A stretch of 64,000 nucleotides of DNA, taken from assembly GCA_902764415.1 (NCBI GenBank), contig CACWVU010000003.1, forward strand, positions 3,857 through 67,856, written 5' to 3'. Positions 27,276-63,184 of the stretch are shown here, one piece after another; position 1 is the stretch's first letter, and every line of letters begins with the position of its first letter. The notes beneath the pieces are model-generated. The model was not told the origin of the DNA, ran no database searches, and saw nothing but the letters and a program-made list of their open reading frames with translations. The stretch is from an uncultured bacterium (GTDB taxonomy: Bacteria > Verrucomicrobiota > Kiritimatiellia > RFP12 > UBA1067). The translations under genes and the position numbers were made by a program.

Positions 27276-27333
27276 AACAAAATCCGTCAAGGTTTTAAAG
27301 AACTAAACAATCAAACAGAAAGGAAAACAAAAC

Positions 27334-28554: not shown

Positions 28555-28559
28555 AGGCG

Positions 28560-29977: not shown

Positions 29978-30010
29978 TCAAGGGGTAGATTATTGTAGAT
30001 AGCCCCTTGA
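29978..30010 (+). promoter_or_regulatory. stem-loop between the SGNH gene and the giant-gene operon (weak terminator or operator), overlapping the -35 box
   Basis: tcaagggg (29978-29985) and ccccttga (30003-30010) form an 8-bp stem around a 17-nt loop (tagattattgtagatag). Confidence 0.3.
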
Positions 30011-30035
30011 TTCCAACAGTATATTTTGGTATTAT
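30007..30035 (+). promoter_or_regulatory. sigma70-like promoter upstream of the small gene and the 10,451-aa gene
   Basis: TTGATT (30007-30012), a 17-nt spacer, then TATTAT (30030-30035), inside the only AT-rich tract of the region (29.94-30.09 kb). Confidence 0.45.
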
Positions 30036-30088: not shown

Positions 30089-30559
30089 ATGATGAAAAAC
30101 ACGAGTAGATATCTCGTGCCAATTGTGCTTGGCGCAGTTGGCGTAGGGGTGGTTTGTCTCCTTTGTTTTCGCGGCTGCGGCAAAGGCGGCGAGTCCGACA
30201 ATGCGGCGGCGCAGGCGGCCTTGGCCGAGGCGCGCAAGGCGGAGCTGGACGCGAAGATGCGTGAGTCGTACGAACGCCGCATCGAGATCGCGCAGGTGCG
30301 CGAGGTGATTGCCGAGCAGATGCGGAAGATGGTCGACGCGATGCGCGAGAAGATGCCGGGCGCGAGCGACGACGAGGTGCTCGCGGCGCTGGAGAAGGAG
30401 CAGGAGTGGCGCTCGCTCCGCCGCCGGATAGTCGATTTGGAAACGGCTAACGCCGACAACCGGCGCAGGACCGGCGAGGTTCTGCGCGAGTACAAGGACG
30501 TCGCTGCGCCGACGCCGGAGAAGTCTCCGGCGGATGGCGACGGCGGCGAAGGAAAGTAG
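30089..30559 (+). CDS. small membrane-anchored coiled-coil protein (156 aa), unknown function, probably co-transcribed with the giant gene
   Basis: N-terminal TM helix YLVPIVLGAVGVGVVCLLCF. A charged heptad-like helical region follows (AAAQAALAEARKAELDAKMRESYERRIEIAQVREVIAEQMRKMVDAMREK). Codon use is G/C-ending like the neighbours. The stop lies 10 nt before ATG 30570. There is no obvious SD. Confidence 0.65.
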   Translation: MMKNTSRYLVPIVLGAVGVGVVCLLCFRGCGKGGESDNAAAQAALAEARKAELDAKMRESYERRIEIAQVREVIAEQMRKMVDAMREKMPGASDDEVLAALEKEQEWRSLRRRIVDLETANADNRRRTGEVLREYKDVAAPTPEKSPADGDGGEGK

Positions 30560-30569: not shown

Positions 30570-33500
30570 ATGAAGCTTTCGATGACGATGAAGAAGACGA
30601 GGAGGACAGGCATGATCAAGCGTTTCGCGGCATTCGCGTTCGCGGCATTCGTCGCGTTCGGCGCCCAGGCGGTGGAGGGTGAAGGCGACATCCGCTCGGT
30701 GGAGGCGGTGTACAACCTCTCTGCCGGCTACAGCTACCCCAACGACGTCTCGCCCCACAAGGTGGGCGAGACGTTCTACATCCTGGTGCGGCTCCTCAAC
30801 GAAGACTACCGCAACCTTAACACCAACCACCAGTGGCAGATTGTGCAGAGCGCCAACGGCGTTGCCATCGGCAATGCGCAGGCCTCGGTGTTCTGGCCGG
30901 GCCTCAGGATCGCCATCGGCTCCCAGATCCGGACTGCCGACTTCTCCTCCACCGGTCCGAACGGCGAGATGTCGGGTCCGAACCTCGAGTTCCCGTACTA
31001 CACCGACTTCTACTTCAAGTACACGGTGCAGGAGGGTGAGCTTGGGCTGCCGGTAAGATTAGTCAACTCCAAGGAGCAGATCATCAACTCCGCGACCATT
31101 TCCGGCTCCTATAGCCTAAAGTTCGTGAACGTCAACACGCTCAACAACTCCAACGGCTACTACTGGAACTTGGTCAACGACAAGGGCACCATGGCCTCGT
31201 TCTGGTTTGGGCCAGATGTGCCGGATCCGGAGCCGTTTGACTACCCAACCGAGCCTTCGCCGGGCACTGGCAATGGGCATATCTTCCCAGTATACATCTA
31301 TCCCGGCCTTTATGTGCAAACTATCGACTTCGAGCCCACCTACGCCGATGCCACTGATCCCGCCAACAAGATCTGGCGCGACGTCTATCAGGGCATTTCT
31401 GACAGCCCGGGCAAGGATCCGGCGATCGTCGGCACCGCCCAGGACGAAGGCGGCGCCACCACCGTCTACATCTGGAGCGAGGACGAGAGCATCTTCTCGG
31501 TGGCCGGCATCCCGGGCGAGACGGTGTCGTACCGCGTCAAGGGCGAGCTGGTGTCGCGGACGGTCTATCCGGTGCAGCTGACGGCGAACGGCCTCTCTTC
31601 CTTCAAGCTCATGGGCGGGGCGTCGGCCGAGGTGGGCGCGTGGACCAACATCGTCCTTTGCGCCACCAAGATCCCGGCGATCAACGCCAACGAGGAGATT
31701 GTGGATGGCTGCCTGGTGACCCGCCGCGTGCGCGTCGTGGCCGCCCCGGCGCCGTTCATCACGTTCTCCGACGCGGACGGCAACCGATCCGTCTCGCTGG
31801 AGGCGACGAGCGCCTACACGGTCGGCTCGCAGATGAAGATGACCTTCTCCAAGGCGTTTGACGACTACGACGTGAAGGTGAAGCTGATGATGAGCGTCGG
31901 CTCGACGTCGATCGACCTGGTGGCGGAGAAGTACATCCTTGTTTCCGACTCCGACGGCGCCGACCCGGCGAGCACCGCGTCCCTCGCCGAGATCACGATG
32001 CCGCGCGGCCAGACCGAGACCTACTTCTACATCTACCCGCTTGGCACCTGCAAGGAGCTGAAGACGATCGGCATAGTCGTCTCCAACAGCATCGACCAGG
32101 CGACGCAGCCGGAGGCTTACGAGCAGTTCAAGGACGGCACCCACCGCAACATGACGGTGAAGGTGACCGACCAGAAGCCGGTCGTCACCGCCTCCATCCC
32201 GTCCTCGGGCTTCAAGAACGACACGGTGAACGTCGACGTCACCGTGGGCGACAACTGGCGTGACCTCTCCGAGCAGAACACCAATGGCTACAGGGTCGTC
32301 ATCATCCTCGGCGGCACCAAGGTGTACGAGACGAACGTGGTCCATTTCGCCGAGAACGAGCAGATTTCCTTCCCGGTCGTCATCCCCGCCGAGGGCAATC
32401 CGCTCAAGGGCACGGTGCAGGTGTGGGACCAGATGGGCAACGCCAGCGACACCTCCCTGGAGGGCTCGATCCTCACCATCGAGGCCCTGGCGCCGCTCAC
32501 GGTGATGGCCGGCACCTTCCAGAGCCGCGACAAGAGCGTCGCGCCCGACACCGACGCGACCTACGCCGAAGGCCAGCAGGTCTACGTCGGCGCGGTGCTC
32601 TCGTCGCCGGCGGCGACCAAGATGTACGCGTTCATCGTGCCGATGGACGCGGCAAGCTCCAACCTCGTCTACACCTCGGCGACGACGAACGGCCTCGAGA
32701 TCAACACCTCGGGCGACAACGCCCAGTACTCGGTGAGGGCGCCGATCAAGCTCCTGGACGGCGACGTCGAGGGGCGCCGCGTCAACCTTGGCGTGGTGCT
32801 GAAGGACAAGCAGGACTGGTTTGACCCTGGCGCCAAGGTGGTCGACACCTACTCCCTGGGCGGCACCTGGACCCTTACCGTCACCAACGTCCCGCCGACC
32901 TACGCGTCCGACGGCGTCTGGGGCGGCGAGGAGACGAACCGCATCGAGGTGGCCAACGGCGCGCGCTATCCCGGTCGCGTCTCCGCGACGACGCCGGTGC
33001 AGTTCAGCGTCAAGGTGGCAGATCCCGGCGTCATTGACGCGACGAGCGGCACCACCCGCGTCAGGTGGACCTGGACCGACGGTCCTGCCGACGACCGCTT
33101 CACGCAGAGCCAGATCACCACGGTCGACGCCAACGGCATCGCCACCGCCACGTTTATCTTCGAGGAAGAGGGGCAGGTTCAGAATGTCTCCCTGCAGCTG
33201 CAGGACCGCGACATGCGGGCGGACAACCCGAACGTCTTCGGTGACGACAAGTATTTCTTCTCTGTGGCAGTCGGCGACGTGCCGACCGTGATTATCGACT
33301 TTGCCAAGAGCGATGGCCCGAACTATGTGGAAACTGCCAACAAGAACCACAACTTCTTCACGGTCAAGATGTCCGAGTGGCCTACTGCCAGCGTGCCCGG
33401 CCGCGAGCGTCTCGGCCTCACCAACCCGCTGTATGTTAAAGTGACGCTGCCGACCGACTACCAGGACGACTCGCGCGCGGTCCTCCATCTCGTCGACACC

Positions 33501-36500
33501 AACGGCGTGGTACAGGTGGACGACGACGAAGGCATCGTGATTACCTTCAAGACGGCGAAGCAGGCCACCCGCGACGGCATCAAGGTCTATTTCGACCTCG
33601 ACAGCCAGAACGGCGGCTCCGGCCCGGTGATGGATCCCTCCGCGTTTCTCGTCAAGGCCGAGGTGATCACCGACACCGCAGCCAGCGACTACCAGACCTG
33701 GGCCGAGTACTACGCCTCGATCGAGGAGCAGGTCACGCTCATGAACGACAATCCGTCGAAGTTCACGCTCGACATGGCCGGCACCCAGGACTGGGCCGGC
33801 TACGCGGGCGCCACCAACGAATGGACGGCGGGCGAGACGATCAAGCTCACGTGGTCCTACACCGACATCGCGCCTGACGTCACCAACCAGGACGCCACCA
33901 TCTCCTGGACGCTCGCCGACGTCAACAACAAGCGCTCGGTGAAGGTCATCGCCGCCACGAACTCGATTACCTATTCCACAAAGTCGCCGAAGGTCGCCAC
34001 CGCCACCGGCACCTACGAGTTCAAGGTGCCGAACGCCAAGTACACCAAGGTCACGGTGACGGCGCGCGACGGCGACGGCGGCGAGGCGGCGTACGAGTTC
34101 TGGATCCACGTCATCCCGACCAAGAACGTAATCATCAACCCCTACGGCCCGAGCCCGACGACCAGCACCAAGTACGGCACCGCCTCCGGCCTCGGCCGCG
34201 GCCACATCTACGTCGAGGGCTCCACCAAGCAGTACACGATGCGCCAGTTCCAGCAGACCTGGCTGTACTCCGAGAGCGACCCCCAGGCGTTCCTCTACGC
34301 GGCCGGCTATCCGGCCACCAATACCGTCGCCTACGACGACGGCACGCTCGGCATCGCCGCCGGCTTCGAGCTCGCGGCGGAGCCGAACGCGCAGGGCGGC
34401 AAGTGGGCAACCGCGCAGGGCGAGTCCACCCGCTACAGCTACGGTCCGAGCGAGTACGACAACTACTTCTACTGCTGGCTGATGAAGAACCAGGACAGCG
34501 GCGGCTGGGAGATCCAGGTGGTCAACCCGCTGACCAGCCCCGCGACGGCCCAGCCATTCAACCCGATGCTGCCGGCCACCGACGCCAACAACAACGGCGC
34601 TTATCCGTCCATCGAGGTGGAGGCGGTCTTCGCGCGCGAGTACTACCCCTCCGACAACCTCGGCGACATCAACGCCGACGGGATCCCCGACGCCTACGTG
34701 AAGCTCTACCCCGGCTTCGGCGTCTTCGACGACGGCGGCGCGCTCACCGGCAACGACCTCAGCCGGCTTGACAACTTCAATGTCGACGAGGACTACCTGC
34801 CCGCGGCGGAGTCGGTGGAGTACGCGAAGTTCATCCCCGGCAACGCGGCCGACTGGGTGATGCGCGGCGTGCCGTTCAACGCGCGGCGCGAGATCCGCGG
34901 CTGGGACTACCACCTCAACAACGGCCCCGCCATCTCCGGCGTGCTCAACTCCGCGCCCGAGCGCCGCTACACCAATCCGAAGGAAGACGCCGACTCCACC
35001 CTCTCCGCGCTCGAGTACATGGGCTTCCTCACTTGGTGTGCGAAGAACGGGCATGACGCGGCGGACGAGGCTTCGTGGCTGCTCTGGTCGCCCGAGAACC
35101 CGACTGACCCGACGCTGGCCGACACCGACGGCGACAAGATTCCCGACGGCTACGAGTACTACATCTGGTACCGCGCCCATGTCGGCTACATCGACTACGA
35201 CGGCCAGTACCGCCGCCTGATCGGCCGCCGCTACAACACCGAGAACCCAGCCGAGCCGACGGTGATTCCGTCCGAGGAAATCGAAAGCATCTACAACCCC
35301 AACGTGCCAAACGACCTGCTCGCCTACGTCGACACCGACGGCGACGGCCTCAACGACCTCATCGAGTTCGAGCTGGGCACCAATCCGGTCGACTTCGACT
35401 CCGACGGCGACGGCCTGCCCGACGGCTTCGAGGTGTTCATCTCCAAGACCGACCCGCTTATCGCCGACCTCATGACCTCCAACCCCGACGGCGACGCCAA
35501 GGCCGAGCTGGTGGTCGAGAACCTCTCCGTAATCGGCATCCTCAATAGCGACGGCAAGGTGGAAAGGTACACGATCCTCAACCCCGACCTCGGCGAGAGC
35601 TTCGACGTCAGCGATGAGACGGTCGACGGCGACTGGACGTACATCCTGAACCTCTCCGACGGCGGCCGCGTCACCAACGCCTACGTGACGGCGACGGCGA
35701 ACGTCGTGACCAACGGCTACTTCGGCTCCATGACCGGTGCTGGCACCTACCTCGTCAGCTACCTGCCGTCCGAGTCGACCTGGAAGTGCGTCGACGTGGG
35801 CGACGGAGCCTACTACCTCGGCGAGCCGGTCGAGGTGAACCCCGGGCTCAGGATCAACTTCATCAAGGCCGGCGTCACCGCCAAGCGGACGACCCTCGCC
35901 GCGGCCCCGAAGATGGCCTACAGCGTCTGGAAGTACGACTACAGCGGGCGGCTGGTGCTCGGCCAGGAGCTGCACGAGAAGTGGACGCCCATCTTCCTGC
36001 CCGCCGGATCGACGGTCGTGGAGCGCCCAGCCGCGAAGAACGTCACGCTCCTCCACCACCATGTCTACCAGTACCGCGGGCTCGCCAAGGACAAGCTTGA
36101 CCGCTCCCGCAAGGTCTGGGTGCCCGTCAAGGCGTTCGATCCGCGCACCGCGTGGCGCGTCGCCGGCGGAGCCAACACCTCGGCGTTCTCCACCTACGAC
36201 GAGTTCATGTACCCGCACTTCCTGCTGCAGGACTCCTACCGCTACTCCGCCGGGGCGGCGCTCTATACCGGCGGCTGGTCGGTGTCGCTCTCCGAGCTCA
36301 CCCCGAACAACGACCACGGCACCCGCGTGAGCATCTGGGAGCGCTACTGTCCCGACCCGCTGAACGCCGACACCGACGGCGACGGCTGCCCCGACGGCTG
36401 GGAGGCGTACCTCTTCGACGGCCCGCCCGTGTATCTACCGGACAATGACGAAAACTTCCCGGGCGAGCGCGTCTATTCCGTGGTGCTCACGCCCTCCATC

Positions 36501-57500: not shown

Positions 57501-60500
57501 GCCTACGAGACCGCCGACCTCGTGAACCCGGTCGTGGTCTCCAACAACGTCGCGTCCGACGCCGCGGTCGTCCTCGAAGGCCTCCGTCCCGGCGCGAAGT
57601 ACTATGTCGCCGCATGGTACGCGAAGGAGCCCGATGACGGCCGTCTCAACGCCGACACGCGCATGCCGTGGGACAGCTGGGGCTACTACTGCAACCTCAC
57701 TCATACCAATGCGCTCCAGATTGCCGGCACCTACGGCTTCGACCCGGTGGCGATTGCCGCGGGCGACACGCTGGTATCGACGAACGCCGTCTGGCTGCAG
57801 GACACCGACTTCAACGACAACGGCGTGGCCGACCGCGAGGAGGACTTCTTGGACGTGCCGGCTTTCTACGACCGCGAGCTTGAGGTCGCCTATTACTTCG
57901 ACATCGCCGGCGCCGAGGAGCGCCACACCAGCGGCGGCGGCGGCTCGACGGCCACGCACTGGGCGATGGCCTATGCTGTGGTGCCGTACGCGACGGTGGC
58001 GACGACCAACGAGCGCGGCGCGGTGGTCTGGTACGCGGTCGTTGTCGACCCCGCCGACCCCTCGTCCTCCAACGTCACCAGCGTCGGCATCGCGGTGGGC
58101 ACGCCGCTCTCCGAGCTCAAGCTCGCCTCCACCTACTACTACGGCAAGGAGCTGGCGCTCGGCACCAACGTCTCCTTCGCCGCCGACTCGGAGTGGAAGG
58201 TGACCGAGTCGCGGGTGCAGGACGTCGTGCTCGTCCATGCCCAGGTGCTCGACCGCTTCGGCTTCGACCCGGCGACAGCCAACAGCGCCATCGCGACCGG
58301 CGAGCGCGTGAACTCGAAGGAATTCACCAAGCGCGACAAGTCCAGGTACCTCGCCGACTACCTCGAGAACGCGCTCGGCGTCACCAACGCCGCCGCCTAC
58401 GTGCTCAACACCACCGTCGACGACTCCGACCCGGTCTACGGCGGCATGGGCGACGGCATCGCCGACGGCTGGGAGCTCTACATGATGTTCAAGCCCGACG
58501 GCGTGAGGGACGGCATCGTCGGCACGGTCGCCGACCTCACCAACGAGCTGGTCAGGCTCTCGCCGTGGAACTACGACGACCGCGACGGCGACCTCGACGG
58601 CGATGGGCTCTCCAACCTCCTCGAGTACGACGGCGGCCACTTCCCGACCAACCCCTACGACGTCGACACCGACGGCGACGGAATCACCGACCTCTACGCC
58701 TGGAAGTACATGCTCAAGGGTGGCGAAGCCGACGGCGACACCGACGGCGACCGGCTCTCCAACTACGCCGAGTACCTCATCAGCGAGGTCTTCCAGTTCT
58801 GCGACCTCGATCCGCGCAACCCGAAGACCGACGGCGCGTGCGTCGACTACTTCCGCAAGGTTGGCAACCTCTACCTCGGCGAGCTCTTCACCGACCACGA
58901 CCAGGTCTCCGACCGCTGGGAGGCGCAGTATGCGACCGAGAAGTCCAATACCGGCGACATCTGGGCGAACCGCTACGTCTACGATCCCGAGAAGGACCTC
59001 GACGGCGACGGCTGGTCGAACTACGCCGAGTCGCGCGCCGGCACGAGTCCGGAGGTGGCCGACTCCATCGGCATCGACCAGATGACGCTGGCCGAGCACC
59101 CGGTCCCGATCATCGAGGCGACGGTAGTCTACAACGGCTACGACCCGATCTACGGCCCGATCGTCTTCCGCGCCTGGAACCAGAAGTACGACCCGGAGAT
59201 GATGCACGCGCCCGATGCGATCTGGACGGTGCCCTCGAGCGTCTCCCGCGGCAGCGACGGCAACGGCACCACGACGGACGCCGGCGCGCAGGTCCTGGAG
59301 GCCGCCAAGTATGTCGGCGTCAAGCCGGCCGGCCGCGTCGTCTACAGCCTCGGCCCGGGCTCGGTGACGCCCGGCTCGGTGAAGATCTACTTCCGCGATC
59401 CGGCCTTCCGCCGCGCGGTGGTGCGCGACAGGACCGAAGTCTACGTCTCCGACGCCGGCGTCTCGCAGGCGAAGTGGTATGCGCTCGTCCAGGACAAGAA
59501 CGGCGAGCTCGTCACCTCCATCACCAACCAGACCGCCGTCGCGGTTGGCTCGATCGACTACACCACCGGCAAGGTCGAGATCGACTTCGGCTCCGCCGCG
59601 CTCAGCGGCAGCGTCTACGCCCAGATGATCAACGCGACGAGCGGCAACGAGAAGATCGACTCCGACATCACCCACTCGCTCCAGTACTTCAACTGCGAGA
59701 AGCTCAACCTCGACGCAAGCTACGTGAAGCTCGAGTGGAACCGCACCCGCGTCGGCACCAACGTCGGCGGCGTCTACTACCTCGGCGACGCCGACCCGGC
59801 GACCGGCGAATCCTCCGGCGGCAGCTCCGGCGGCAACCCGTTCAGCTCCGGCGGCAACTCCACCAGCTTCACCTCCATGAGCAAGGGCTACGTGCGCGAG
59901 GGCCTGAACAGCTTCGTCGTCTACGCCGACCAGGACGGCGACGGCGACTACACGCCCGGCGAGCCCTTCGGCTTCGTGCGCGACGTCGACGTCGGCTGGC
60001 AGGGCGCCAAGTTCTCGGTCGAGCTCTCCGAGACCTCGCCGATCTTCGCCCGCGTCAACGTCCGGACCGAGGAGAACGACCGCGTCAACCTCTACGGCGT
60101 CTACAGCGACACGATGTTCATCACCAACATCATGGACCTCGCCACCGCCCAGAGCGTCGACGAAGCCTCCATGACCGACGGCGGCCGCTACATCCACGTC
60201 CGGATCGACCGCTACGCCGTCAACGGCGTGCAGCTCGGTGTCGGCGCCGGCCAGCTCAACATCGACGACCGCGTGCTGGTCGACAAGTACATCGACGGCA
60301 ACGTCCGCAGCGTCTTCCACGAGGGCGACTTCCTAAAGGAGGGCGAGTTCGACATCGACTGGTCCACCTTCGAGGAAATCTCCGAAAGCCCGGAAATCGC
60401 GGAGAAGCTCGGCAACAACCCCGACATCACCTCCGTCGCCTACCGCATCGTGGTCGACAACGCGCTGGTGGTGAGCCCGGCCACGAACAACCTCTCGCTC

Positions 60501-61925
60501 GCCTGCGTGTTCACCCGCCGCTTCGACGCCGACGACGGCGTGTCCCGCCAGATCCCGACCGACCTTGAGGACGTCGTCTGCCACGGCGCACGGCCGACCT
60601 TCAGCTGGTCGATGGGCTCCAAGAACACCTACACCGCCTTCCAGCTGCAGATCCTCGACGGCGGGTCGGTGGTCTACGACAGCGGTGTCCAGCTCGCTCC
60701 GTGCAGGAGCCCGGATGGCAAGTACACCTGGACCGCCCCGATCTCCGTCGGCGACCAGATGCCCAGCGGCCAGATCCTCTCCACGACCGGCAACTACACC
60801 TGGCGCGTCGCGATGTACAACGCCAAGTTCAAGCCCCATCCCTTCGTCGACGCCTTCTCGCAGAAAGCCTCGTTCCGCACCGACGTCGACGCCCAGCAGG
60901 ACACGGACGACGACGGCTTCAACGCCATCAACGTCTGCGTGAAGTACACCGGCCCCGTGGACGTGCTCGCTTTCTGCGACGACGCCTCCGTCAAGGGCAA
61001 GGTGCGCCTCCAGGCGTTCACCACCGCCGACTTCAGCGGCAAGGCGCGCTTCCAGGAGGCCGGATCCACCGACACCAAGATCGTCAGCGTGCCGGCCTCG
61101 CAGACCATCGTCACCGGCAAGGACGAGATCGCCGACGCCTCGCACACCATGGCGAACGCGCGGCTGATCGGCCTCCCCGCCGGCACCTACTACATCCGCG
61201 CCTACATCGACACCAACGGCAACTTCGAAAAGGACGACTGGGAGTCCTGGGGTCAGGCCACGGTGCCAGTCACCGTCGGTGCTGGGCTTGTTGCGCCGGT
61301 CGTCGGTCTCTACATCGAGGACGCCGACACCAACCAGGACTGGGTGCCAGATGCGCTTGAGTTCGACAACGACGGTCAGCTGAAGGACGAGTACAAGGGC
61401 AAGACGACCATCTCCGGCGAGTTCCTGATGTCGAAGAACCTCGCGGCGGCAATGTCCGGCAACACCCTGGAGGCCGGCATCTCCACCGGCATCTCCGGCG
61501 CCACCATCACGGCGTTCCAGTATGTCAACGCGATGGGTACGCTGCTCGGCGCCAACTCGAGCGGCAAGACGACGACGATCGACGCCATCCGCGAGGCGGT
61601 GGAGAAGAAGGTCAAGGACGGCACGGTGAAGATCACGTCGATCGCCTTCGACCCGGTCGACAAGAAGGTGGTGCTGGCGGTCGACGCCGAGGTGGCGGAC
61701 TCGGTGGCGGGCGAGCTCTTCTCGAAGATCTACGAGTTCCCGTCCGACGACGAGGCGAAGGTGACGGTCAAGGTCTACCGCAAGGATTCGCTGGTGCAGG
61801 CCGACTGGGTGCTCGTCCACACCGAGGCTAACGTCGCGGTCGGCAAGCACAGCCAGTACGTGGAGGTGGACCTCCCCGACGGCGACTACACCAGCGGCTT
61901 CTACCGCGTCGAGATCGAGCAGTAG
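30570..61925 (+). CDS. giant secreted multi-repeat protein, 10,451 aa (LamG + dozens of TSP3-like Ca-binding repeats + ~1,000-aa super-repeats)
   Basis: 31,356 nt with no stop. Signal ..MIKRFAAFAFAAFVAFGAQA. An alternative start is ATG 30612, preceded by gaggagg at 30598-30604. TSP3-like motifs occur throughout 34.6-61.4 kb: DTDGDGIPDGWE, DTDGDGLPDGYE, DPDHDGLSNYQEYL, DSDGDGLPDGFE. Coding periodicity is strong: G/C-ending codons were 20/20, 15/20, 14/20 and 19/20 in four spot samples. Confidence 0.9.
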   Translation: MKLSMTMKKTRRTGMIKRFAAFAFAAFVAFGAQAVEGEGDIRSVEAVYNLSAGYSYPNDVSPHKVGETFYILVRLLNEDYRNLNTNHQWQIVQSANGVAIGNAQASVFWPGLRIAIGSQIRTADFSSTGPNGEMSGPNLEFPYYTDFYFKYTVQEGELGLPVRLVNSKEQIINSATISGSYSLKFVNVNTLNNSNGYYWNLVNDKGTMASFWFGPDVPDPEPFDYPTEPSPGTGNGHIFPVYIYPGLYVQTIDFEPTYADATDPANKIWRDVYQGISDSPGKDPAIVGTAQDEGGATTVYIWSEDESIFSVAGIPGETVSYRVKGELVSRTVYPVQLTANGLSSFKLMGGASAEVGAWTNIVLCATKIPAINANEEIVDGCLVTRRVRVVAAPAPFITFSDADGNRSVSLEATSAYTVGSQMKMTFSKAFDDYDVKVKLMMSVGSTSIDLVAEKYILVSDSDGADPASTASLAEITMPRGQTETYFYIYPLGTCKELKTIGIVVSNSIDQATQPEAYEQFKDGTHRNMTVKVTDQKPVVTASIPSSGFKNDTVNVDVTVGDNWRDLSEQNTNGYRVVIILGGTKVYETNVVHFAENEQISFPVVIPAEGNPLKGTVQVWDQMGNASDTSLEGSILTIEALAPLTVMAGTFQSRDKSVAPDTDATYAEGQQVYVGAVLSSPAATKMYAFIVPMDAASSNLVYTSATTNGLEINTSGDNAQYSVRAPIKLLDGDVEGRRVNLGVVLKDKQDWFDPGAKVVDTYSLGGTWTLTVTNVPPTYASDGVWGGEETNRIEVANGARYPGRVSATTPVQFSVKVADPGVIDATSGTTRVRWTWTDGPADDRFTQSQITTVDANGIATATFIFEEEGQVQNVSLQLQDRDMRADNPNVFGDDKYFFSVAVGDVPTVIIDFAKSDGPNYVETANKNHNFFTVKMSEWPTASVPGRERLGLTNPLYVKVTLPTDYQDDSRAVLHLVDTNGVVQVDDDEGIVITFKTAKQATRDGIKVYFDLDSQNGGSGPVMDPSAFLVKAEVITDTAASDYQTWAEYYASIEEQVTLMNDNPSKFTLDMAGTQDWAGYAGATNEWTAGETIKLTWSYTDIAPDVTNQDATISWTLADVNNKRSVKVIAATNSITYSTKSPKVATATGTYEFKVPNAKYTKVTVTARDGDGGEAAYEFWIHVIPTKNVIINPYGPSPTTSTKYGTASGLGRGHIYVEGSTKQYTMRQFQQTWLYSESDPQAFLYAAGYPATNTVAYDDGTLGIAAGFELAAEPNAQGGKWATAQGESTRYSYGPSEYDNYFYCWLMKNQDSGGWEIQVVNPLTSPATAQPFNPMLPATDANNNGAYPSIEVEAVFAREYYPSDNLGDINADGIPDAYVKLYPGFGVFDDGGALTGNDLSRLDNFNVDEDYLPAAESVEYAKFIPGNAADWVMRGVPFNARREIRGWDYHLNNGPAISGVLNSAPERRYTNPKEDADSTLSALEYMGFLTWCAKNGHDAADEASWLLWSPENPTDPTLADTDGDKIPDGYEYYIWYRAHVGYIDYDGQYRRLIGRRYNTENPAEPTVIPSEEIESIYNPNVPNDLLAYVDTDGDGLNDLIEFELGTNPVDFDSDGDGLPDGFEVFISKTDPLIADLMTSNPDGDAKAELVVENLSVIGILNSDGKVERYTILNPDLGESFDVSDETVDGDWTYILNLSDGGRVTNAYVTATANVVTNGYFGSMTGAGTYLVSYLPSESTWKCVDVGDGAYYLGEPVEVNPGLRINFIKAGVTAKRTTLAAAPKMAYSVWKYDYSGRLVLGQELHEKWTPIFLPAGSTVVERPAAKNVTLLHHHVYQYRGLAKDKLDRSRKVWVPVKAFDPRTAWRVAGGANTSAFSTYDEFMYPHFLLQDSYRYSAGAALYTGGWSVSLSELTPNNDHGTRVSIWERYCPDPLNADTDGDGCPDGWEAYLFDGPPVYLPDNDENFPGERVYSVVLTPSIYNIGCKVAAGSPVSSSVAEDGSSSWADEYAGYDSTGAYPDCPTIVNGNRFPDWTNKAWPTDPWQDDTDGDGIPDMAERDFFRYGNATAPGAGGGLNPLSWDTDQDGLPDPWEAEFAGTYTPGDEKTTATTVAVDENGNTNTTVSVTRAGGTWSGGMDGTVNDATLDYDHDGLQNWQEYLVGAMRCWRYDDTISEWDNNVFNEMALQAAIDNLSGVADVADANVWNAFWTDRLVSDAQQGANPDGQYPVGKGYSPDHAGYNPRITVDGFFDCSASYFSLCENEWDPVAGSWYMFRDGINHDLSNPGEEWTFLEGSTLVQCNRFTWRPYYEALSGSSPKSLGDDSMSGGYDFGTFPSYVIAPDRYICCDPTLADTDGDGMDDYYELYHGMNPLLGIAGASERSNGGYDLVFAAYGGGQGTPGSEEPPPASADVNYWKKRPTDGTQSPNPCWRINQTRRIGTGLSDYDYEAYPWLNGLAYADPDGDDLRNQTESIMSDMQAQSTWLHSDPTPLWMTDLDYEGSITHRYYIPTEVRGLIILGAPDGFFDPETLKEYKFNDFMGYTWVDGEPPTLSIAGVDLNLGNVFDVAYDFEENEGYDTDHDYISDHDEAAGKTKSASDPQDSDSPLRRQAMYFPGEDSLLETTLEDPEYSAVGAIIGNDLPFLYYTVECWAKPEGDLTRDQTVVERAVYTGKSNLGDEQFLRKNFLIGIKNGRWYTMYDSAGTSVNDPQQILDGPFATTNWTHVAATFDGEYLSLYINGVKYKQIKTSLRPENGVAAVGTDVGGRLEGRSDWGNYAAILVGASATTFEGVVMDSLYRQLSMVGTKFSDYDRYFRGYVDEVRVWDGARAESEIRADYKKRYTRADALANREAVWEVWSQGIVNRSPSTENLLPAELRRHWTFDHMPGGVSTDVVMRSPAGFTTAEGVVDAKAIWSRPKEWESPWWTSVEVRSTVYKEHYEAWIPWISDTVGHLPRFDKTTTDSKYWSEDMIGGEFASTFGYSQVSFPRSAEPWSRWRQALHRTVPATAIDERYNWISEDPALLLTYYFTMRYRLKEGFDLLPLGGAYAKRISAAEGGMWDDGTAADAWAETGADADFDRLPDWWADYARNNYCDPLDPPERIGWDTAVNYDGIVMAAWAAYLRDLARGMLSDGKYHPEFADNRDLDHDGIPDWWEDMYKINTGSKDDAVADPDHDGLSNYQEYLISEVDRIVALDPTLAHSITEDVVDYYVQTTNSLGETVYLGELYADHDFMEDLEEDANGLDRTRYDANTDADEDGWSAWSELRYSDYKLTTAQKFVSHLAGVEEVEDYPVPVVHATLRYNGSKVPVGSTAPVIVYAYSGNNLQNEPNAVYTVTPGASETRYLYLGFFEDRVFHGTLTPGWVVNNLGSFSLQVAHAQPDDIFSWEIFDDEGNSLGLYSGTYDEMRAAVTTYGSRCKVKTKEFVWSDTLASGNGGTSDDEFALKIASVDSTMKGHILLFNKRVGDIDLITGDFDLDVSVLKSYFMTYGIALPQHFLRLMYQSQLPTLQTKDLQVSLARPDRGKLTEGVTAFVAFIDADGDGAFTPGTDPIGFMKDVEVGWDQVPSLVIEMTDSSQAAGERFAYGGGSNTVDTLRIIRTSVNGSEEGVKRRIVYSRETGDVKRNTVYEGDLVTSGKFGLDWSSLRADLKAMETVAFDDVTEVGYTVTLGGGSVQNINPANVARTFTVEYTTKPVKPTLYSPSALADPKVETARPEFKWSGADGYTSFILQIWNAETNVYASPLTALPPTDSFGRYFWTPPVYIGNDISDDAWALNNNTNYRWRVAMFNAKFSDTNAADVAWSDFAAFETRLAPANDFSTRLGRADVKVRYYGPATNELGTVIVQLFRNADFAGVPAAQTRLYAADLAAEANSLTNAAAVSFLGLDADEYFAVAFIDRNGNAKREPYETWGYSAQVGHSLPAIWRPLGAKVDPTSSEVSTVEVFMEDTDVNRDDILDWNQDESLLATAASGTASGADTSDVDLDGLTGDEETGDTYTNRQRWDTDGDGMPDGWEARFADTDPLMADAELAADGDLMAFAVTNGIYRLVTDAAGARYLVRDTNSAYRVGDVISTTNLVTTYDYMTVVADETGTNFVTVTYAGLGTNVLATGTFKIDTISPVSVALVHAQVYDEFGYWQSTAVDPADPLTKPFTALDKYMLARYFEAIGFTGVREEAMNVSKTWKDFTLKPLDADCDRDGVADGWELYLMFGTNGVATAQTLATPAAAEISPWKYADRDADIDGDELSLVDEYAQGRTPSDPWNKYSVYEELLAAGVVPEDADKFTDAKARRFAIAAADYDEDWDLDQISNVQEMWAYYRDMARLADIDPENPRSDGFTPDYFRMIGTNSYLGAYYNGAEFVERAARSMLDITDLRMAGTRDLYHSGWDLWSIVRYSYAKQEESGEEFSEELSVANKYTYVMFEGYEGVTEDALVKFHHDDLGHATCGSLAGVITTHGGLEQMKEEIRQRSVSALDASGFDTPEPMVKFTFRYTGFGMRDVIVDVWQTSSIYPERGEQVASSFALQPAFDAGVAYARAKFPARGTLKQGPAKFVAYIDADESGTLSPGETFGVAEANVGYSDLDLTIRLGDGNPALPTINLVANGTNDTERPIQTVAIVRTKVNGQYVSPRGVMLKRYDNNVNRTAIYPSDWINETDGFIGVDKYLAFDAQADIDPSDETLPAVEEVTYEIVKLRRSFLIDSDDGTKISNTNLNHYVYTEVVEDEETGDSSNVYHTVDQQVNEEFTLRYSVARDVPLEVTGSAASKASDTVVSFLVPADRAVTKFWLDIDGSVKGGDSDRGFLLANLVTGDVLNTAPGLTGQYTSRRVILDGDWFRENGIAFTEGEHGVRVALGNDKFPAAPTEAAEWSERAEFSVAADAVFKGMVAVRAVHPVVTNENAFTTITVAAYEQPDLANPVATATSVTNGAAVVLGGLRTGRKYYLAAWYVKDAADGRSGSSAADPKVRMPYDTWGYLTMLGEATNGFNAAAIVATEKSVPTNTIWMQDTDWNDNGVADREENLTIKSIPGFTPSEAPEWEDVDCDGIPDQDDEDPVFDNSTKSIEGDVMAKATLKMLTVRIGTVELETNWVTYVVYDPDQETATRLDGDTIVIPRGTPASALTSLYTTYLYGRKKSAPLGIGVATNLAEGVVYEHEWKDVALVHHQVYERFGFNPNTANALASPSNWVNTAKFTALDKYIVTNYLYAIGAVVDPASFTNWTLNARRVDFDYDGLTDGWELYTMFGTNAVQALDKTAKASVINAWVAGDRELDPDGDGLTNLHEYNGGFEPTDPWNKYTFDFGTPLPGGALPLTDYEARRFDIGSAEKQLADDDNDGLSNWAELLATRNGAFGEFDVKKDFTVTNQFDYFRTNGLEGVARRYAGFVVTDHDFVGDAWEDAHDLTVANRYVYDAHTDYDDNGWSLWSEATAAAMWKPEVITNTYDMGDEVYTWVYTNGVEFTGTPLPKVNLVAIGDVGDKNYSYQQVENEGTTNAVTNTVWATYPVTLKAYRGNDLGSAYRTFYVDGTVKDGVLVASFDGEGLVEGLNTFVLENGDASGFCKAMVGFDRVDLEISIDSGESVIPPRTVYGWGDAVSIRRTEINGRTCPMRYVWSGSVDGYVTAADVLKSGAIDLDARYLVEDAAAMGIANTNIASVTYEVSGWYGQTFTKTFAAKRPVAIPVSPTIGKAYTVRTRKPVFAFAGLDGATAFALQISISTNAADVFLATTNLLPAANSAGSRIFKSDWQIGEGLDLNDSSNYFWRVVGLSAKWPEVEESGASAWAEFKTSVDSTKANTGYGKIAAEVRYYGAATNDTASVIVGVWRDAAFAGTPVAMKHLAAGDFAALAVQKEESEFFKPTASVEFDGIEPGNYYVMAYNDLNGNGKRDAWESWGYKNKVGTDEPDLYAPVALTVVSTKAATPTALVFMEDTDINDNGIPDCVEDIDFCGEDPSSVSGSMDLDGDGLDESDEIWNEHLYGTDPLVWDTDGDGLPDGYEVWAGLDPVSEYDIMLTRTYADTNGVEQTYTYRTSAAENAEDGDVMAYAMIVRRALVVADAVGGETVTLVVDPADTTDYRVGGKLKAGGVTSFATAVPYATLPSADWNEYTEKEYYVLSTNVYEATDNDFVVDVVDEFEIMLMHWQVYGAFGFESGVATPGDTEKRADGQVHTRPMYGIDKYLVSALLGIEEDMNQNRRWGQGLTCLKPGVSDYDGDGIPDGWELYMMFPGAKAGRYEPAMNPWKPFDGYTPGAGGMTWTGLDYYDKDGNLHTAGDADWTPADWYNGGANAASPYTANDGNTFYVDIDDKTARQWNIESVTNQLADVDNDGLSNMDEYLAARDTLVPGAADLDVRNNFSNGTTLDYFRTNGVSGAGRRYLGEIATDHDFIEDWYEDFYNTDSASRNRYDAYNDREEDGWSNWSEARAGTNPELFGTLSLVRYDLTEDNVVAEYPIPTIGVTLTYQTMDTFDSSIVLKAWHGDTAAGTPDAVWTVSGAANGSTISKRFLGLNPNRRVDFNIGPGDIAEHHVKIRWYDPDYYIETINYETNGTIKSIVYTIHDIDSSRWSTPPYFGDDVLDQSNGKYTAAIPGGWVNYKTGDISIDFSDPAYRDTDYTYHERVDDNQKIIHHWNLTRSFFNVEYMSRIVSSGNRKTFSLSKPMEADANSKGRLVEGRTIFIAFADVNGNGVLDPGEPFGYQKGVEVGWDKVADLRIELTDEAPALPRVALGGISSNAWLSIRRQVVNDSVRRGIEKVVWTGRAPSSGSLTEADILLEAGGYVFDGSLTNDAVKAGLGQVYSSCYGLYADGDLIAAFTNVFDLARDVPVPVSPSDKNGYLVRTARPTFVFNGDRSKYTAFAIQIADAAGDVVWTSTTNVFPAATASGSEYVAPVYIGQGQLLADGTNYLWRVAQFNSKFPTAEDDADWSDWTPFKTAVDSTDGDTGYGKLSAEIRYYGAATSALTNVIVGVYDTADFTGEPIAKATLLGDGTVQDLARIPDAGKGFMNIETNVVFDGVSAGPRYVMAYIDVNGNGRRDRYEPWGYYNNVGTDTKALYTPMSLAVSAAKADAPSCIVFIEDTDVNDNGIPDSAEDTSSWTDPLPASADLTDADGDGLTAFDEINLYGTNPYCADTDGDGMDDGWEVANGLNPRVDDSDVVGADDVMAYAEVEAQIAVSNDTVYVVMTVVDGYGKVVATNLYDTFTLGDGRIAVGKKSDAVVVPGQFYATISTNVVLIHSAVYDWFGFDPTTANPRATAAEDEGGEDGNGLGRNTVPFTAYWKFVTEKHYLKELFGVDWSLKTAAIDSNANGLPDGWELYVAFATKTVDPNTNTGFPLAGDILVDAIANFNEGVDESDPWNRYYFYEQLGSTNGVVRYTNAEARKYDLANGDLTNDEDFDGLSNYSEFLASKLTPAIELDVTNPVTDGVTPDYFRKAGDDYMGLLFNGGEFIEPELRRVMGIATQTGAGTQDYKDTGWDAWATARYSIYNMDQTVDISGVVSDELMLLIRYWNVIRPGEFTGTTVKEALDFFHEVWEGVIRLIDSEGNILIDGKDASVSGPGTIHQADAAQTTTQVVAFFGGQAKMEEVIARNKKDIAADQIVKPEPEVKLLLKYAGNGSHNVVIEAYQLNPAYPEYGEQMTAQWTTPVTFSAGIAQTVLATTPASGALLQGPARFVAYIDQDGSNSLSAGDIFGETSCEVGYLGCNLEIALGEANPALPALRLADGTNAVNTIALVRTAINGKPLYNNAKGVFIVQFPNNAARESLYPDEYDSGDYIGIDQGLSTLVNIKDEHGVVTNGIESVTYEVLRLTPYEIAGLSITNLNHYILVETNGESSVTSNFVNQSVNEEITIKYSLIRDVAKSIACAGSTADDLTFTFTVPTDTANTKFWLKTVSGVETNILGGTKGFILNDIRDGVVVLDKQWFKKNNVAIPTGRVKFGVVLGNDRFGRPGDSSDDWNCALAEVFVNEGASFDGKLAVVVKHPTATLGSKLTIAAYESSDLANAVAVTNNVAASTAVELTGLRPGASYYIAAWYVNDENDGRGSDKSGNKYRMPYDTWGYYCKLDVTNALGVASSMAFDPVAVIAATNASEITIYLQDTDWNANNIVDREENFRAINGDYDRSVDPKYGFDIAGIDEVELFSDAGENDVFAYAEVPFYCVMANVGGAEMWFAVTNLDEETVSDKIVPGIPVGALLKDLITLKATYFYDFGKTKPTRLALGTNIVWTGEEKVVKAVESKSLILVHGQVYDYFKFNPNTANGRIAKSGWVNTRSFTSADKSYVTNYLANVLGETDVSGKALPIDYPDADEVVNGRGDGILDGWELYVKHSPWDFTDRTFDADEDGLDQLHEYDGGFEPTDPWDAYSVYNNFFENGLLLPGTPKFTDAEARRFGIAEADVDKDDDNDLLTNLQEIQAYYYDRTGLDDIDPEKAWSDGATPDYFRAVGSTYLGLLFNGGEFIEPEARKALGIGVFSQVGTRDHAMTGWDNWSTVRYSIAKKEGTLSVSGVSEELMLVIRYLNVIRPGEFQGGTLEEVLEFFHSNWEGVTRAIDSEGNVVVEAKDKEVHGGAYIVDADAVSTTEGLIRFFGGVDRMQADIAANKKVLTDADIATPEVEVVLTLKYAGNDSQNIAVEAYQVNPAYPEYGMQQTAKWNVSEKFSAGVAQIVLPSTPAAGALVQGPARFVAYIDQDGDNKLSAGDIYGTTDVEVGYLGAKLTIRMGGEQDYAYPLVRVQATNDCSIVALVRSKINDVPLYSQVAGVYYCYLQNNAAREAIYPIEFFTEEHTGLDKDLALDYGGELEQIESVTYEILHLDLAGLNDVNVTNLNHYLWIEEVETDDGVSNVVHFVEQSLNEEVTFRYSNTRDKADVWGVADAVKGNVTVSFTVPNDGYANTRFWLKVNGAVYDGEHGNGFLIPPVADHVVVLDQEWFDNEGKDVVFDVGENKVQVLLGNDKYAYTEDVAEWSEEARFSVDAAPIRTGKLAVEVKHPLTNFTSGVTIAAYETADLVNPVVVSNNVASDAAVVLEGLRPGAKYYVAAWYAKEPDDGRLNADTRMPWDSWGYYCNLTHTNALQIAGTYGFDPVAIAAGDTLVSTNAVWLQDTDFNDNGVADREEDFLDVPAFYDRELEVAYYFDIAGAEERHTSGGGGSTATHWAMAYAVVPYATVATTNERGAVVWYAVVVDPADPSSSNVTSVGIAVGTPLSELKLASTYYYGKELALGTNVSFAADSEWKVTESRVQDVVLVHAQVLDRFGFDPATANSAIATGERVNSKEFTKRDKSRYLADYLENALGVTNAAAYVLNTTVDDSDPVYGGMGDGIADGWELYMMFKPDGVRDGIVGTVADLTNELVRLSPWNYDDRDGDLDGDGLSNLLEYDGGHFPTNPYDVDTDGDGITDLYAWKYMLKGGEADGDTDGDRLSNYAEYLISEVFQFCDLDPRNPKTDGACVDYFRKVGNLYLGELFTDHDQVSDRWEAQYATEKSNTGDIWANRYVYDPEKDLDGDGWSNYAESRAGTSPEVADSIGIDQMTLAEHPVPIIEATVVYNGYDPIYGPIVFRAWNQKYDPEMMHAPDAIWTVPSSVSRGSDGNGTTTDAGAQVLEAAKYVGVKPAGRVVYSLGPGSVTPGSVKIYFRDPAFRRAVVRDRTEVYVSDAGVSQAKWYALVQDKNGELVTSITNQTAVAVGSIDYTTGKVEIDFGSAALSGSVYAQMINATSGNEKIDSDITHSLQYFNCEKLNLDASYVKLEWNRTRVGTNVGGVYYLGDADPATGESSGGSSGGNPFSSGGNSTSFTSMSKGYVREGLNSFVVYADQDGDGDYTPGEPFGFVRDVDVGWQGAKFSVELSETSPIFARVNVRTEENDRVNLYGVYSDTMFITNIMDLATAQSVDEASMTDGGRYIHVRIDRYAVNGVQLGVGAGQLNIDDRVLVDKYIDGNVRSVFHEGDFLKEGEFDIDWSTFEEISESPEIAEKLGNNPDITSVAYRIVVDNALVVSPATNNLSLACVFTRRFDADDGVSRQIPTDLEDVVCHGARPTFSWSMGSKNTYTAFQLQILDGGSVVYDSGVQLAPCRSPDGKYTWTAPISVGDQMPSGQILSTTGNYTWRVAMYNAKFKPHPFVDAFSQKASFRTDVDAQQDTDDDGFNAINVCVKYTGPVDVLAFCDDASVKGKVRLQAFTTADFSGKARFQEAGSTDTKIVSVPASQTIVTGKDEIADASHTMANARLIGLPAGTYYIRAYIDTNGNFEKDDWESWGQATVPVTVGAGLVAPVVGLYIEDADTNQDWVPDALEFDNDGQLKDEYKGKTTISGEFLMSKNLAAAMSGNTLEAGISTGISGATITAFQYVNAMGTLLGANSSGKTTTIDAIREAVEKKVKDGTVKITSIAFDPVDKKVVLAVDAEVADSVAGELFSKIYEFPSDDEAKVTVKVYRKDSLVQADWVLVHTEANVAVGKHSQYVEVDLPDGDYTSGFYRVEIEQ
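38380..39080 (+). other. single LamG/concanavalin-A-like domain inside the giant protein
   Basis: RRQAMYFPGEDS...YTVECWAKPEGDLTRDQTVVERA...NWTHVAATFDGEYLSLYINGVKY...FRGYVDEVRVWDGARAESEIRADYKKRY is the typical Laminin_G_3 pattern. Confidence 0.75.
39700..61330 (+). repeat. seven divergent ~3-kb (~1,000-aa) coding super-repeats of two architectures (order A-B-A-A-B-B-A)
   Basis: The in-frame anchor motif L(V/M/I)H.QV(Y/L)..FG(F/Y) sits at nt 42921, 46023, 48942, 52212, 55233 and 58230, giving spacings of 1034, 973, 1090, 1007 and 999 aa. Type A units carry DHDF..NRY.Y...D(G/E)DGWS.WSE, F.AF.D..G.G...PG.P.G....VEVGW, RP.F.(W/F).G...Y.WRVA.FN.KF, RYYG.AT and Y.(V/I).AY.D.NGN(G).(K/R)(R/D)..E.WGY. 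Type B units carry PDYFR..G..Y.G..(Y/F)NG.EF(V/I)E, FVAYID.D....LS.G..(F/Y)G....VGY, NLNHY, KFWL, AAYE..DLAN(P/A)V, YY.AAWY and RMP(Y/W)D(T/S)WGY. Confidence 0.8.
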
Positions 61926-61926
61926 T

Positions 61927-61975
61927 GTTCGTGGTTCGTGGCTCGTGGTTCGTGATTCGCGGGCTGTGGATTGTG
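61927..61975. repeat. seven exactly phased heptamers (consensus GyTCGTG) directly after the giant-gene stop codon
   Basis: gttcgtg gttcgtg gctcgtg gttcgtg attcgcg ggctgtg gattgtg. It starts 2 nt after TAG 61923-61925 and ends 21 nt before ackA ATG 61996. No inverted partner lies nearby. Confidence 0.8.
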
Positions 61976-61995
61976 AAAAAGGGAAAAAGGAGAAA

Positions 61996-63172: not shown

Positions 63173-63184
63173 CAGAGATCAGCC

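Follow-up and report, generated by a model that had tools for sequence, protein, structure and literature searches.

The 64,000-nucleotide (nt) stretch of DNA analysed here (the window; contig CACWVU010000003.1 of assembly GCA_902764415.1, from an uncultured bacterium of the Kiritimatiellia) carries one giant open reading frame (ORF; 30570..61925, +) whose product of 10,451 amino acids (aa) is longer than any other known protein of its family, a group of giant secreted proteins that occurs in the Kiritimatiellia. Coordinates count from the first letter of the window, the features described lie on its + strand unless stated otherwise, and aa positions are those of the giant protein. The ORF starts with ATG, runs through 10,451 sense codons and has one stop, at its end; an in-frame TAA lies two codons 5' of the ATG, which itself is placed 10 nt past the stop of a 156-aa ORF. 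GC content at the three codon positions (GC1/2/3) is 59/44/91% in a genome of 64% GC, which is a strong coding signal, and the GC content of the gene is the same as that of its flanks. A previous inspection of this DNA from its letters and ORF translations (the sequence-only reading) had described one uninterrupted 31.4-kb ORF of 10,451 codons with third-position G/C bias and an encoded signal peptide, and the single stop and the GC3 of 91% bear this out. Many long antisense or out-of-frame ORFs overlap the gene, several of them on the minus strand, as a usual by-product of high-GC composition. The window contains no Ns, the gene has neither near-identical DNA repeats nor a significant tandem array, and its longest internal DNA repeats are 68-87% identical over no more than 300 nt, which makes it unlikely that the assembly is chimeric or has collapsed repeats. 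Close relatives occur in metagenome assemblies of ENA and NCBI, from 96-98% nt identity (L001; L-numbers denote loci or contigs with relatives, P-numbers representative homologue proteins) to about 80% (L002, L006, L090). The 5' 12.7 kb recur in independent assemblies at 96-98% nt identity (L001), four loci (L090, L091, L093, L095) have intact 3' portions that are open over the last ~2,100 codons, and more distant orthologues in metagenome-assembled genomes (MAGs) are intact. The related contig L006 has an uninterrupted ORF of at least 8,826 aa that, by arithmetic, comes within a few bases of where the contig ends, so that very long versions exist in at least one other assembly. The giant ORF is thus a real, intact gene.

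The N-terminus of the giant protein (MKLSMTMKKTRRTGMIKRFAAFAFAAFVAFGAQA|VEG) was judged by eye to be a Sec signal peptide of the signal peptidase I type (aa 1-34; 30570..30671), with a basic n-region, a 14-residue hydrophobic core and an AXA site at which cleavage is predicted (AQA|VE). Comparable N-termini are present in 85 of 149 representative homologues, and in the family a GDI[YF]-type motif usually comes after the signal peptide. Past the signal peptide there is no transmembrane-like segment, bar a weak stretch at aa 10230. The protein is strongly acidic (1,554 D+E vs 784 K+R residues, net charge about -770), poor in cysteine (48 residues, 0.5%) and contains 36 DxDxDG and 0 GGxGxD motifs. 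A Pfam run on 1,000-aa tiles found TSP3_bac (PF18884) in two tiles (35.9 and 27.7 bits, cut-off 25) with weaker matches elsewhere, and a LamG or concanavalin-like lectin domain (Laminin_G_3, PF13385; 62.5 bits vs 27.6) at aa ~2640-2759 (38487..38846). DUF2141 (PF09912) reached 16.7-21.9 bits, below its cut-off of 24.4, and is named here as a resemblance only. About 90% of the length has no sequence family match in Pfam, NCBIfam or PDB. The sole PDB sequence relatives of the LamG domain are the LamG regions of pappalysin, and no other match came from PDB searches in which the module, the head, the C-terminal domain and the upstream lipoprotein served as queries, both as single sequences and as profiles, or from a profile search with the whole ~4,000-aa family architecture. 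No recognisable enzyme domain emerged from the Pfam, NCBIfam and PDB profile searches, and no NCBIfam or Pfam model for type IX (T9SS) or type I (T1SS) secretion, PEP-CTERM, LPXTG or RTX matched the protein. Two claims of the sequence-only reading are thereby upheld, namely that the recognisable elements are limited to LamG, TSP3 loops and DUF2141-reminiscent units (the last being below threshold) and that hallmarks of RTX, T1SS, LPXTG and PEP-CTERM proteins are lacking.

Self-comparison of the giant protein (self-BLAST) reveals a head, a chain of large super-modules and a terminal region. The head begins with a variable N-terminal region (aa 35-1350; 30672..34619) without paralogous repeats and without Pfam or PDB match; its identity across the family is the lowest of the whole protein (~25%, compared with 40-66% for aa 1351-3250). 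Sequence that is unique within the protein extends over aa 35-1430, followed by short repeats bearing TSP3 loops (aa 1430-2400) and again by unique sequence that includes LamG (aa 2400-3050). The conserved head core (aa 1351-3050; 34620..39719) thus combines TSP3-type DxDxDG loops, the short repeats and conserved unassigned segments. A partial super-module (aa 3051-3450; 39720..40919), matching the second halves of the modules in self-BLAST, leads over to the seven super-modules of ~1,000 aa, which are of two subtypes, arranged A B A A B B A: module 1 (type A, aa 3451-4465; 40920..43964), module 2 (type B, aa 4466-5481; 43965..47012), module 3 (type A, aa 5482-6579; 47013..50306), module 4 (type A, aa 6580-7577; 50307..53300), module 5 (type B, aa 7578-8584; 53301..56321) and module 6 (type B, aa 8585-9705; 56322..59684). 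The seventh is represented by its first half only, a terminal half-module of type A (aa 9706-10300; 59685..61469) that is found in all family members and consists of beta-sandwich domains including DUF2141-like sandwiches with Ca loops. A linker and a ~110-aa C-terminal domain follow. The super-module proposed in the sequence-only reading is thus real, with seven copies plus the partial one at aa 3050-3450. The copies are 25-57% identical in aa sequence, which points to old duplications, and a recent repeat expansion or an assembly collapse was rejected given this divergence and the DNA repeats of at most 87% identity over at most 300 nt.

The protein is no orphan. In a full scan of 1.84 billion representative proteins (clusters at 50% identity), a HMMER profile built from the seven super-modules matched 940 representatives with E<=1e-3, of which 673 reached E<=1e-10 and 397 reached E<=1e-30; the top matches were proteins of 3,000-7,774 aa with up to 10 matched stretches each. 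Word-index searches had given a handful of near-identical fragments, three for the N-terminal 1,300 aa and two for the module, and the orphan status that these implied was overturned by the scan; likewise, exact 8-mers from the N-terminus retrieved nothing from genome contigs while an alignment-based scan did find the family, and a word-index search with a profile of the C-terminal domain returned 18 short C-terminal fragments. The sequence-only reading had found no nameable family for the super-module and the first ~1,300 aa and had proposed a new architecture. The regions are indeed unannotated and no characterised family matches, but hundreds of homologues exist, and the architecture is not a one-off, being shared throughout a conserved family that counts 397 or more representative clusters. 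In BLASTP, homologues are collinear with the giant protein from aa ~30 to its last residue at 25-47% identity, with head chains from aa ~30-60 to ~3,300-4,400 at 29-37% identity (P0085, P0034, P0048, P0009, P0011), and many columns are invariant in an alignment of ten sequences (A5). In all 36 members tested, the last ~1,150 aa form a single high-scoring segment pair with the last 1,200 aa of the giant protein. Common to all members are a ~3,300-aa head, the terminal half-module and a ~110-aa C-terminal beta-sandwich; the giant protein has such a head with one LamG domain, seven module first halves, the C-terminal domain and an upstream lipoprotein gene.

Named homologues come from Kiritimatiellia MAGs, mostly of rumen or gut origin, and are labelled 'hypothetical' or 'LamG domain-containing protein [Kiritimatiellae bacterium]' (examples are MBO7237229.1, P0006-P0154 and contig CBDSLB010000054.1 of GCA_965351585.1). 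A scan of GTDB species representatives added relatives of the full-length type, in MAGs of Kiritimatiellia sampled from the abomasum of cattle, the omasum of sheep, the rumen and an anaerobic membrane bioreactor. Submitters had labelled some of these MAGs Verrucomicrobia, Victivallales or Lentisphaeraceae. The species of the window does not figure in the matches, the best of which is 37-38% identical to the giant protein. Protein length rises stepwise with the number of modules. Among 85 apparently full-length representatives, in which module first halves were counted, one copy corresponds to 3.0-4.9 k aa, two to 5.0-6.2 k, three to 6.1-6.6 k and four to 7.3-7.8 k, and the seven copies of the giant protein to 10,451 aa; the median is ~4,190 aa and the longest other representative has 7,774 aa. 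We found no description of this family in the literature, and what is new here is a coherent, uncharacterised family of the Kiritimatiellia with its own super-module, C-terminal domain and lipoprotein partner. In a distant subgroup (L007 10001-24226; P0103, 4,741 aa, ending ...GFFRVRL), the N-terminal part contains PKD domains.

The C-terminal domain (aa ~10340-10451; 61587..61922) is specific to the family and ends close to the consensus ...SGF[FY]KVE[VI]xQ, which lies within a few residues of the terminus (TSGFYRVEIEQ-COOH in the giant protein). Its hidden Markov model (HMM) scores 111.8 bits on aa 10340-10451, and L75, W80 and F111 (numbered within the last 118 aa of the giant protein) are near-invariant. 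Twenty-three family copies had no match in Pfam at E<=1, the domain had none among PDB sequences, the last 999 aa of the giant protein matched no C-terminal sorting domain of NCBIfam at E<=0.1, and its terminus (...SGFYRVEIEQ) has no hydrophobic helix. The domain was confined to the C-terminus of the giant family both across 1.8 Mb of fetched loci and at all 7 metagenome loci found with it, a sample biased to the neighbourhood of the giant gene. This distribution gives no sign of a general sorting tag, a role that may nevertheless apply given the same bias, and the domain may be an anchor, a sorting signal or neither.

For structure prediction, the last 1,200 aa (aa 9252-10451) were modelled with AlphaFold2 (AF2) from a 36-row alignment of family C-terminal fragments and paralogues from the window. 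The model covers the second half of super-module 6 and what follows, has a mean predicted local distance difference test score (pLDDT) of 74.4 and a predicted TM-score (pTM) of 0.74, and consists mostly of tandem beta-sandwiches. Its first ~245 residues are helices and loops with TSP3, DGWE and DYFR motifs, residues ~246-1000 form a run of beta-sandwiches including DUF2141-like 'F.AY.D.DG.G' and 'YY.RAYID.NGN...WESWG' units, and a poorly predicted linker precedes the confident C-terminal beta-sandwich (residues ~1095-1200, pLDDT ~80). The earlier remark that no BIg/cadherin (Ig-like) tandem arrays are obvious therefore stands for sequence models but not for the predicted structure of this region. 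A model of super-module 5 built from only seven internal paralogues had a pLDDT of 45 and was discarded as unusable. Foldseek searches of PDB with the last-1,200-aa model returned only proteins of multiple Ig, FN3 or MG domains (E to 1e-7, TM-scores 0.07-0.10), among them cytokine-receptor ectodomains, the Haloferax S-layer protein 7ptp as second best, complement C3/C5, alpha2-macroglobulins, the Ca2+-stabilised ice adhesin 4p99 (E=1.5e-4, TM-score 0.07) and the pilin BcpA; no enzyme-like fold was found by Foldseek.

Directly upstream of the giant gene lies the gene of a small lipoprotein of 156 aa (30089..30559) with an invariant G-C lipobox position and a helical domain containing 'K.PEW..L'. 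Homologues of 124-248 aa precede the giant gene in 15 other loci (L001-L005, L007-L010, L012, L014-L016, L019, L023), including the most distant subgroup (L007); adjacency was counted where the 5' end of the giant gene was seen and the lipoprotein HMM detected the neighbour. Common to these homologues are the helical 'K.PEW..L' domain and an invariant Cys, set in a lipobox-like [LFS]-x-G-C context; they have no match in Pfam, NCBIfam or PDB. The AT-rich gap upstream of the lipoprotein gene contains sigma-70-like promoter matches (29996..30035), three in number vs 0.1 expected from shuffles and consensus matches only, and no terminator-like site was found between the giant gene and ackA. Scans of the window for Rfam families and tRNAs were empty.

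The other neighbours in the window are glycoside hydrolases (GHs) upstream, a regulator, and downstream the genes for acetate kinase (ackA, 61996..63135; Pfam 436.7 bits) and phosphotransacetylase (pta, 63182..64000; Pfam PTA_PTB 212.9 bits), the latter cut by the window end. In relatives, ackA follows the giant gene directly in L003-6, L008, L010-13, L015, L016, L019 and L023. Of the genomic context described in the sequence-only reading, the ackA-pta neighbourhood is hence conserved in most relatives, whereas the glycan-degradation neighbourhood is not. In L003-L006, the order continues downstream with pta, a KpsF-like SIS/CBS gene, Amuc_1102, a PilM/FtsA-like gene, Amuc_1100, an Amuc_1099-like gene with TSP3 loops and a secretin of ~1,090 aa, and L008 shows the KpsF-like/Amuc_1102 series only to the PilM-like gene. 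From L006 we infer that the lineage of the window carries the Amuc_1102-to-secretin cluster beyond the window end. These genes correspond to the 'pili-like' cluster of Akkermansia (PMC4960237). A specific link between the giant protein and this cluster through the Amuc_1099-like protein was rejected, as the two share only TSP3 loops. In L007, the pair of lipoprotein and giant gene is kept but has other neighbours: it is preceded by a sigma-54 activator gene and followed by an M4 peptidase gene.

The giant gene evolves under purifying but relaxed selection, with ratios of nonsynonymous to synonymous substitution rates (dN/dS) of 0.46 over 4,258 codons in comparison with L002 and of 0.30-0.64 in each segment in comparisons with L002 and L006, as against 0.07 in ackA and 0.03 in pta. 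A segment with dN/dS >= 1, which would have marked a diversifying tip, was not found. Between the window (55488-64000) and L006, ackA and pta are 96% identical in nt sequence (dS ~0.15) while the giant gene is ~83% identical (dS 0.25-0.62, that is, 2-4 times the value of ackA/pta), which suggests allele replacement or recombination, or an unusually fast turnover, at the giant locus. Such fast turnover or allele replacement is often seen for exposed surface proteins.

We favour, with moderate confidence, the interpretation that the giant protein is a Sec-exported, Ca2+-stiffened envelope fibre or adhesin with a conserved C-terminal base, a variable number of extender modules and a distal LamG head. 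The Ca-dependent cell-surface scaffold or adhesin hypothesised in the sequence-only reading is thus partly supported, with its surface location and adhesive function putative. The giant gene would probably be co-transcribed and translationally coupled with the lipoprotein gene that ends 10 nt upstream, as their spacing and conserved adjacency suggest. Judging from the signal peptide, the protein would then be exported through the Sec translocon and cut by signal peptidase I after A34. Outside the cytoplasm, the TSP3-type DxDxDG loops and DUF2141-like beta-sandwiches would be expected, from the motif families to which they belong, to bind Ca2+ and to stiffen the chain. More speculatively, the C-terminal ~1,150 aa with the terminal beta-sandwich might hold the protein at the envelope, possibly via the cognate lipoprotein. 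While the number of modules goes with protein length as an observed fact, we infer for the chain of ~1,000-aa super-modules the role of an extender whose copy number (1-4 in relatives, 7 here) sets the reach of the fibre. The LamG head and the fast-diverging N-terminal 1,350 aa would form the distal end that contacts ligands, e.g. glycans, particles or other cells.

Several points weigh against this interpretation. The conserved position beside housekeeping genes looks more like that of a core envelope component than of an accessory adhesin. The sequence that follows the signal peptide shows neither a membrane anchor nor a beta-barrel and no sorting signal of a known kind, and there is no known secretion partner either; a periplasmic location may therefore apply instead. 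The polarity is putative, the proximal and distal ends being assigned from conservation patterns. The Foldseek TM-scores of 0.07-0.10 support a generic resemblance to a 'string of beta-sandwiches' in the predicted model and nothing closer, and a pTM of 0.74 may mean compact packing instead of an extended rod. Lastly, the giant gene is interrupted in three close relatives, all known from short-read assemblies, by a 58-bp deletion and another indel in L001 (at 3509 and ~5040), by a TGG>TAG change in L002 (7299-7301) at the codon equivalent to the conserved W1888, and by a 41-bp deletion in L006 (at ~9990). These interruptions may be assembly errors or real strain-level inactivation.

The same interruptions might be expected if the ORF were an artefact of assembly, chimeric or with collapsed repeats, or else a dead gene that stays open by chance in a GC-rich genome, and long spurious ORFs are common in high-GC genomes, as those overlapping the giant gene on the minus strand illustrate. 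Yet a GC3 of 91% beside a GC2 of 44%, a dN/dS well below 1 in each segment, end-to-end collinearity with over 80 full-length homologues, themselves with signal peptides and a matching C-terminus, the modest identity and length of the internal DNA repeats and the intact 3' portions of L090, L091, L093 and L095 make this explanation hardly credible. A housekeeping scaffold or coat of the envelope deserves more attention, i.e. an S-layer-like lattice, or one spanning periplasm and outer membrane, of which the giant protein would be a core component and the module number would set thickness or spacing. The order lipoprotein-giant-ackA-pta is conserved in many species-level genomes of the class, the GC content of the gene does not depart from that of its flanks, the second-best Foldseek match is an in-situ archaeal S-layer protein of Ig-like domains (7ptp), and the pTM of 0.74 suggests a fixed geometry between domains. 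Against this stand the very high divergence, with signs of allele replacement between strains whose ackA/pta are 96% identical, the interrupted copies in close relatives and the 3-fold variation in length between species, all more typical of exposed accessory surface proteins, and the TM-scores are too low for homology to S-layers. We therefore regard such a scaffold as unlikely, though worth keeping in mind.

Decidedly unlikely in our view, albeit compatible with an envelope fibre, is that the giant protein serves as cargo or fibre of the Amuc_1098-1102-type secretin/PilM system encoded five genes downstream, crossing the outer membrane through the secretin or assembling on it. In relatives the giant gene is indeed followed by ackA-pta, the KpsF-like gene, Amuc_1102, PilM and Amuc_1100, in L003-L006 also by the Amuc_1099-like gene and the secretin, and ackA and pta of L006 are 96% identical to those of the window. 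Three unrelated housekeeping genes nevertheless separate the giant gene from the cluster, L007 keeps the lipoprotein and giant pair without ackA or a secretin cluster nearby, TSP3 loops are all that the Amuc_1099-like protein has in common with the giant, and the window ends before the cluster, whose presence here is extrapolated from L006. Moreover, the Amuc_1098-1102 genes were first named in Akkermansia, from which, to our knowledge, no such giant is known. In Omnitrophota, giant genes were reported beside loci resembling type II secretion systems (T2SS; 10.1101/2023.11.21.568195), which speaks for such a link. A cellulosome-like scaffold, in which Ca-binding TSP3/dockerin-like loops and LamG would tether glycoside hydrolases or substrates at the surface, might be read from the GH-rich neighbourhood in the window (GH36, GH92 and a GH130/GH78/GtaA fusion), from the lectin-type fold of LamG and from the interpretation of giant proteins of the Planctomycetes-Verrucomicrobia-Chlamydiae (PVC) phyla as such scaffolds (PMC12057145). 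It appears improbable, as no cohesin, dockerin or carbohydrate-binding module matched in Pfam or NCBIfam, the GH neighbourhood is not kept in relatives and the giant protein contains no enzyme domain.

Going beyond the envelope fibre that we prefer, the lipoprotein and giant pair could represent a lineage-wide, undescribed envelope system of the Kiritimatiellia, in which a new mode of C-terminal anchoring or sorting would involve the lipoprotein, export would maybe proceed through an Amuc_1100-type secretin, and the modules would act as a molecular ruler that gut and rumen lineages set to different lengths between ~4,000 and over 10,000 aa. This extended proposal is doubtful at present.

Among known systems, the giant protein functionally resembles the RTX/T1SS giant adhesins LapA, SiiE and MpIBP of Marinomonas, which also have very long, acidic, Ca2+-dependent extender chains of beta-sandwiches with a ligand-binding region at one end, and region II of MpIBP (4p99) is among its Foldseek matches (TM 0.07). 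However, it lacks the defining T1SS/RTX features of secretion and gene context: it has a Sec signal peptide instead of a C-terminal T1SS signal, no GGxGxD motif and no adjacent ABC transporter, membrane fusion protein or TolC genes, and its repeat unit is a multi-domain super-module of ~1,000 aa instead of an Ig domain of ~100 aa. Tandem BIg-like extender domains of ~100 aa are a mixed case, with no Big_* matches in Pfam but tandem beta-sandwiches in the AF2 model. In agreement, tile-wise searches matched no characterised family of giant adhesins. The sequence-only reading had called proteins above 10,000 aa rare in bacteria, a statement that needs qualification since they are 'frequently detected' in PVC phyla (bioRxiv 10.1101/2023.11.21.568195), and the size of the giant protein alone is thus not exceptional. 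Also of PVC ancestry are the 'Dockerin-type' giants of Omnitrophota, which are TSP3-rich, have a proposed role in attachment and lie near T2SS/secretin-type genes (West-Roberts et al. 2023, 10.1101/2023.11.21.568195). TSP3 repeats and PVC ancestry are common to both, whereas the Omnitrophota proteins have at least 30,000 aa, are predicted to be membrane-anchored with multiple transmembrane regions and carry dockerin/EF-hand and discoidin repeats (10.1101/2023.11.21.568195). The giant protein is much smaller, lacks a transmembrane segment after the signal peptide as well as dockerin and discoidin matches, and has secretin-type genes near its family only in relatives, behind ackA, pta and the KpsF-like gene. 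The best NCBIfam matches are the TSP3 lipoproteins CglD and MtsD of Myxococcus (NF033765, NF047639), both acting in surface adhesion or cohesion, but their scores (30.6 bits vs a cut-off of 400 and 23.1 vs 800) reflect an alignment of the shared TSP3 stretch alone, the giant protein has no VWA domain, and size and architecture differ. A conceptual likeness exists to T9SS cargo of Bacteroidota, which combines a Sec signal peptide with a ~100-aa C-terminal beta-sandwich ending in an aromatic-hydrophobic strand; here, however, no Por_Secre_tail (TIGR04183 / PF18962) matched in Pfam or NCBIfam and the domain was seen on one family only. We know of no T9SS in the Kiritimatiellia lineage.

Glycan degraders of rumen, gut and anoxic sediments, the Kiritimatiellia are common yet little studied, and their cell surface is almost uncharted. 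A single odd ORF has here become a defined family with head, extender super-modules, terminal domain and partner lipoprotein, varying stepwise in length between lineages. Its parts are expressible targets for the study of how Kiritimatiellia attach to particles or host glycans, and the family as a whole offers a natural series for the growth of giant proteins by module duplication. The C-terminal domain together with the lipoprotein could reveal a new route of anchoring or export in PVC bacteria. Even if the protein were only a generic adhesin, about 400 clusters of 'hypothetical' proteins would gain a useful annotation.

A second giant secreted protein of 3,530 aa with DUF2341, LamG, fn3 and Gly_rich_2 domains is encoded further upstream (11913..22505). 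A Gly_rich_2 giant of ~3,400 aa directly precedes the lipoprotein and giant pair in L003-5 and L009, and is not there in L007 and L008; this vicinity hints that the two giants may be functionally linked. Between the second giant gene and the lipoprotein gene, the window holds a 7.5-kb block (22683-29936, +) that is not present in L003-5 and looks like a lineage-specific insertion; it encodes a 23S-rRNA-IVP family protein, a GH36-like protein of 1,198 aa, a GFO/IDH/MocA oxidoreductase and a GDSL hydrolase. In L009, an extra ORF of 1,789 aa without a Pfam match (33072-38441) is located between the giant gene and ackA. A 347-aa ORF (10756-11799, +) weakly matches an IS200-like Y1 transposase (17.6 bits, under the cut-off). 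Near the start of the window, an ORF of 1,860 aa with a signal peptide (1836-7418, +) encodes an unusual triple glycosidase fusion composed of a GH130 domain (aa 61-366 of that protein), a complete GH78 alpha-L-rhamnosidase (aa 439-1220) and a DUF4964/DUF5127/GtaA six-hairpin region (aa 1225-1835).

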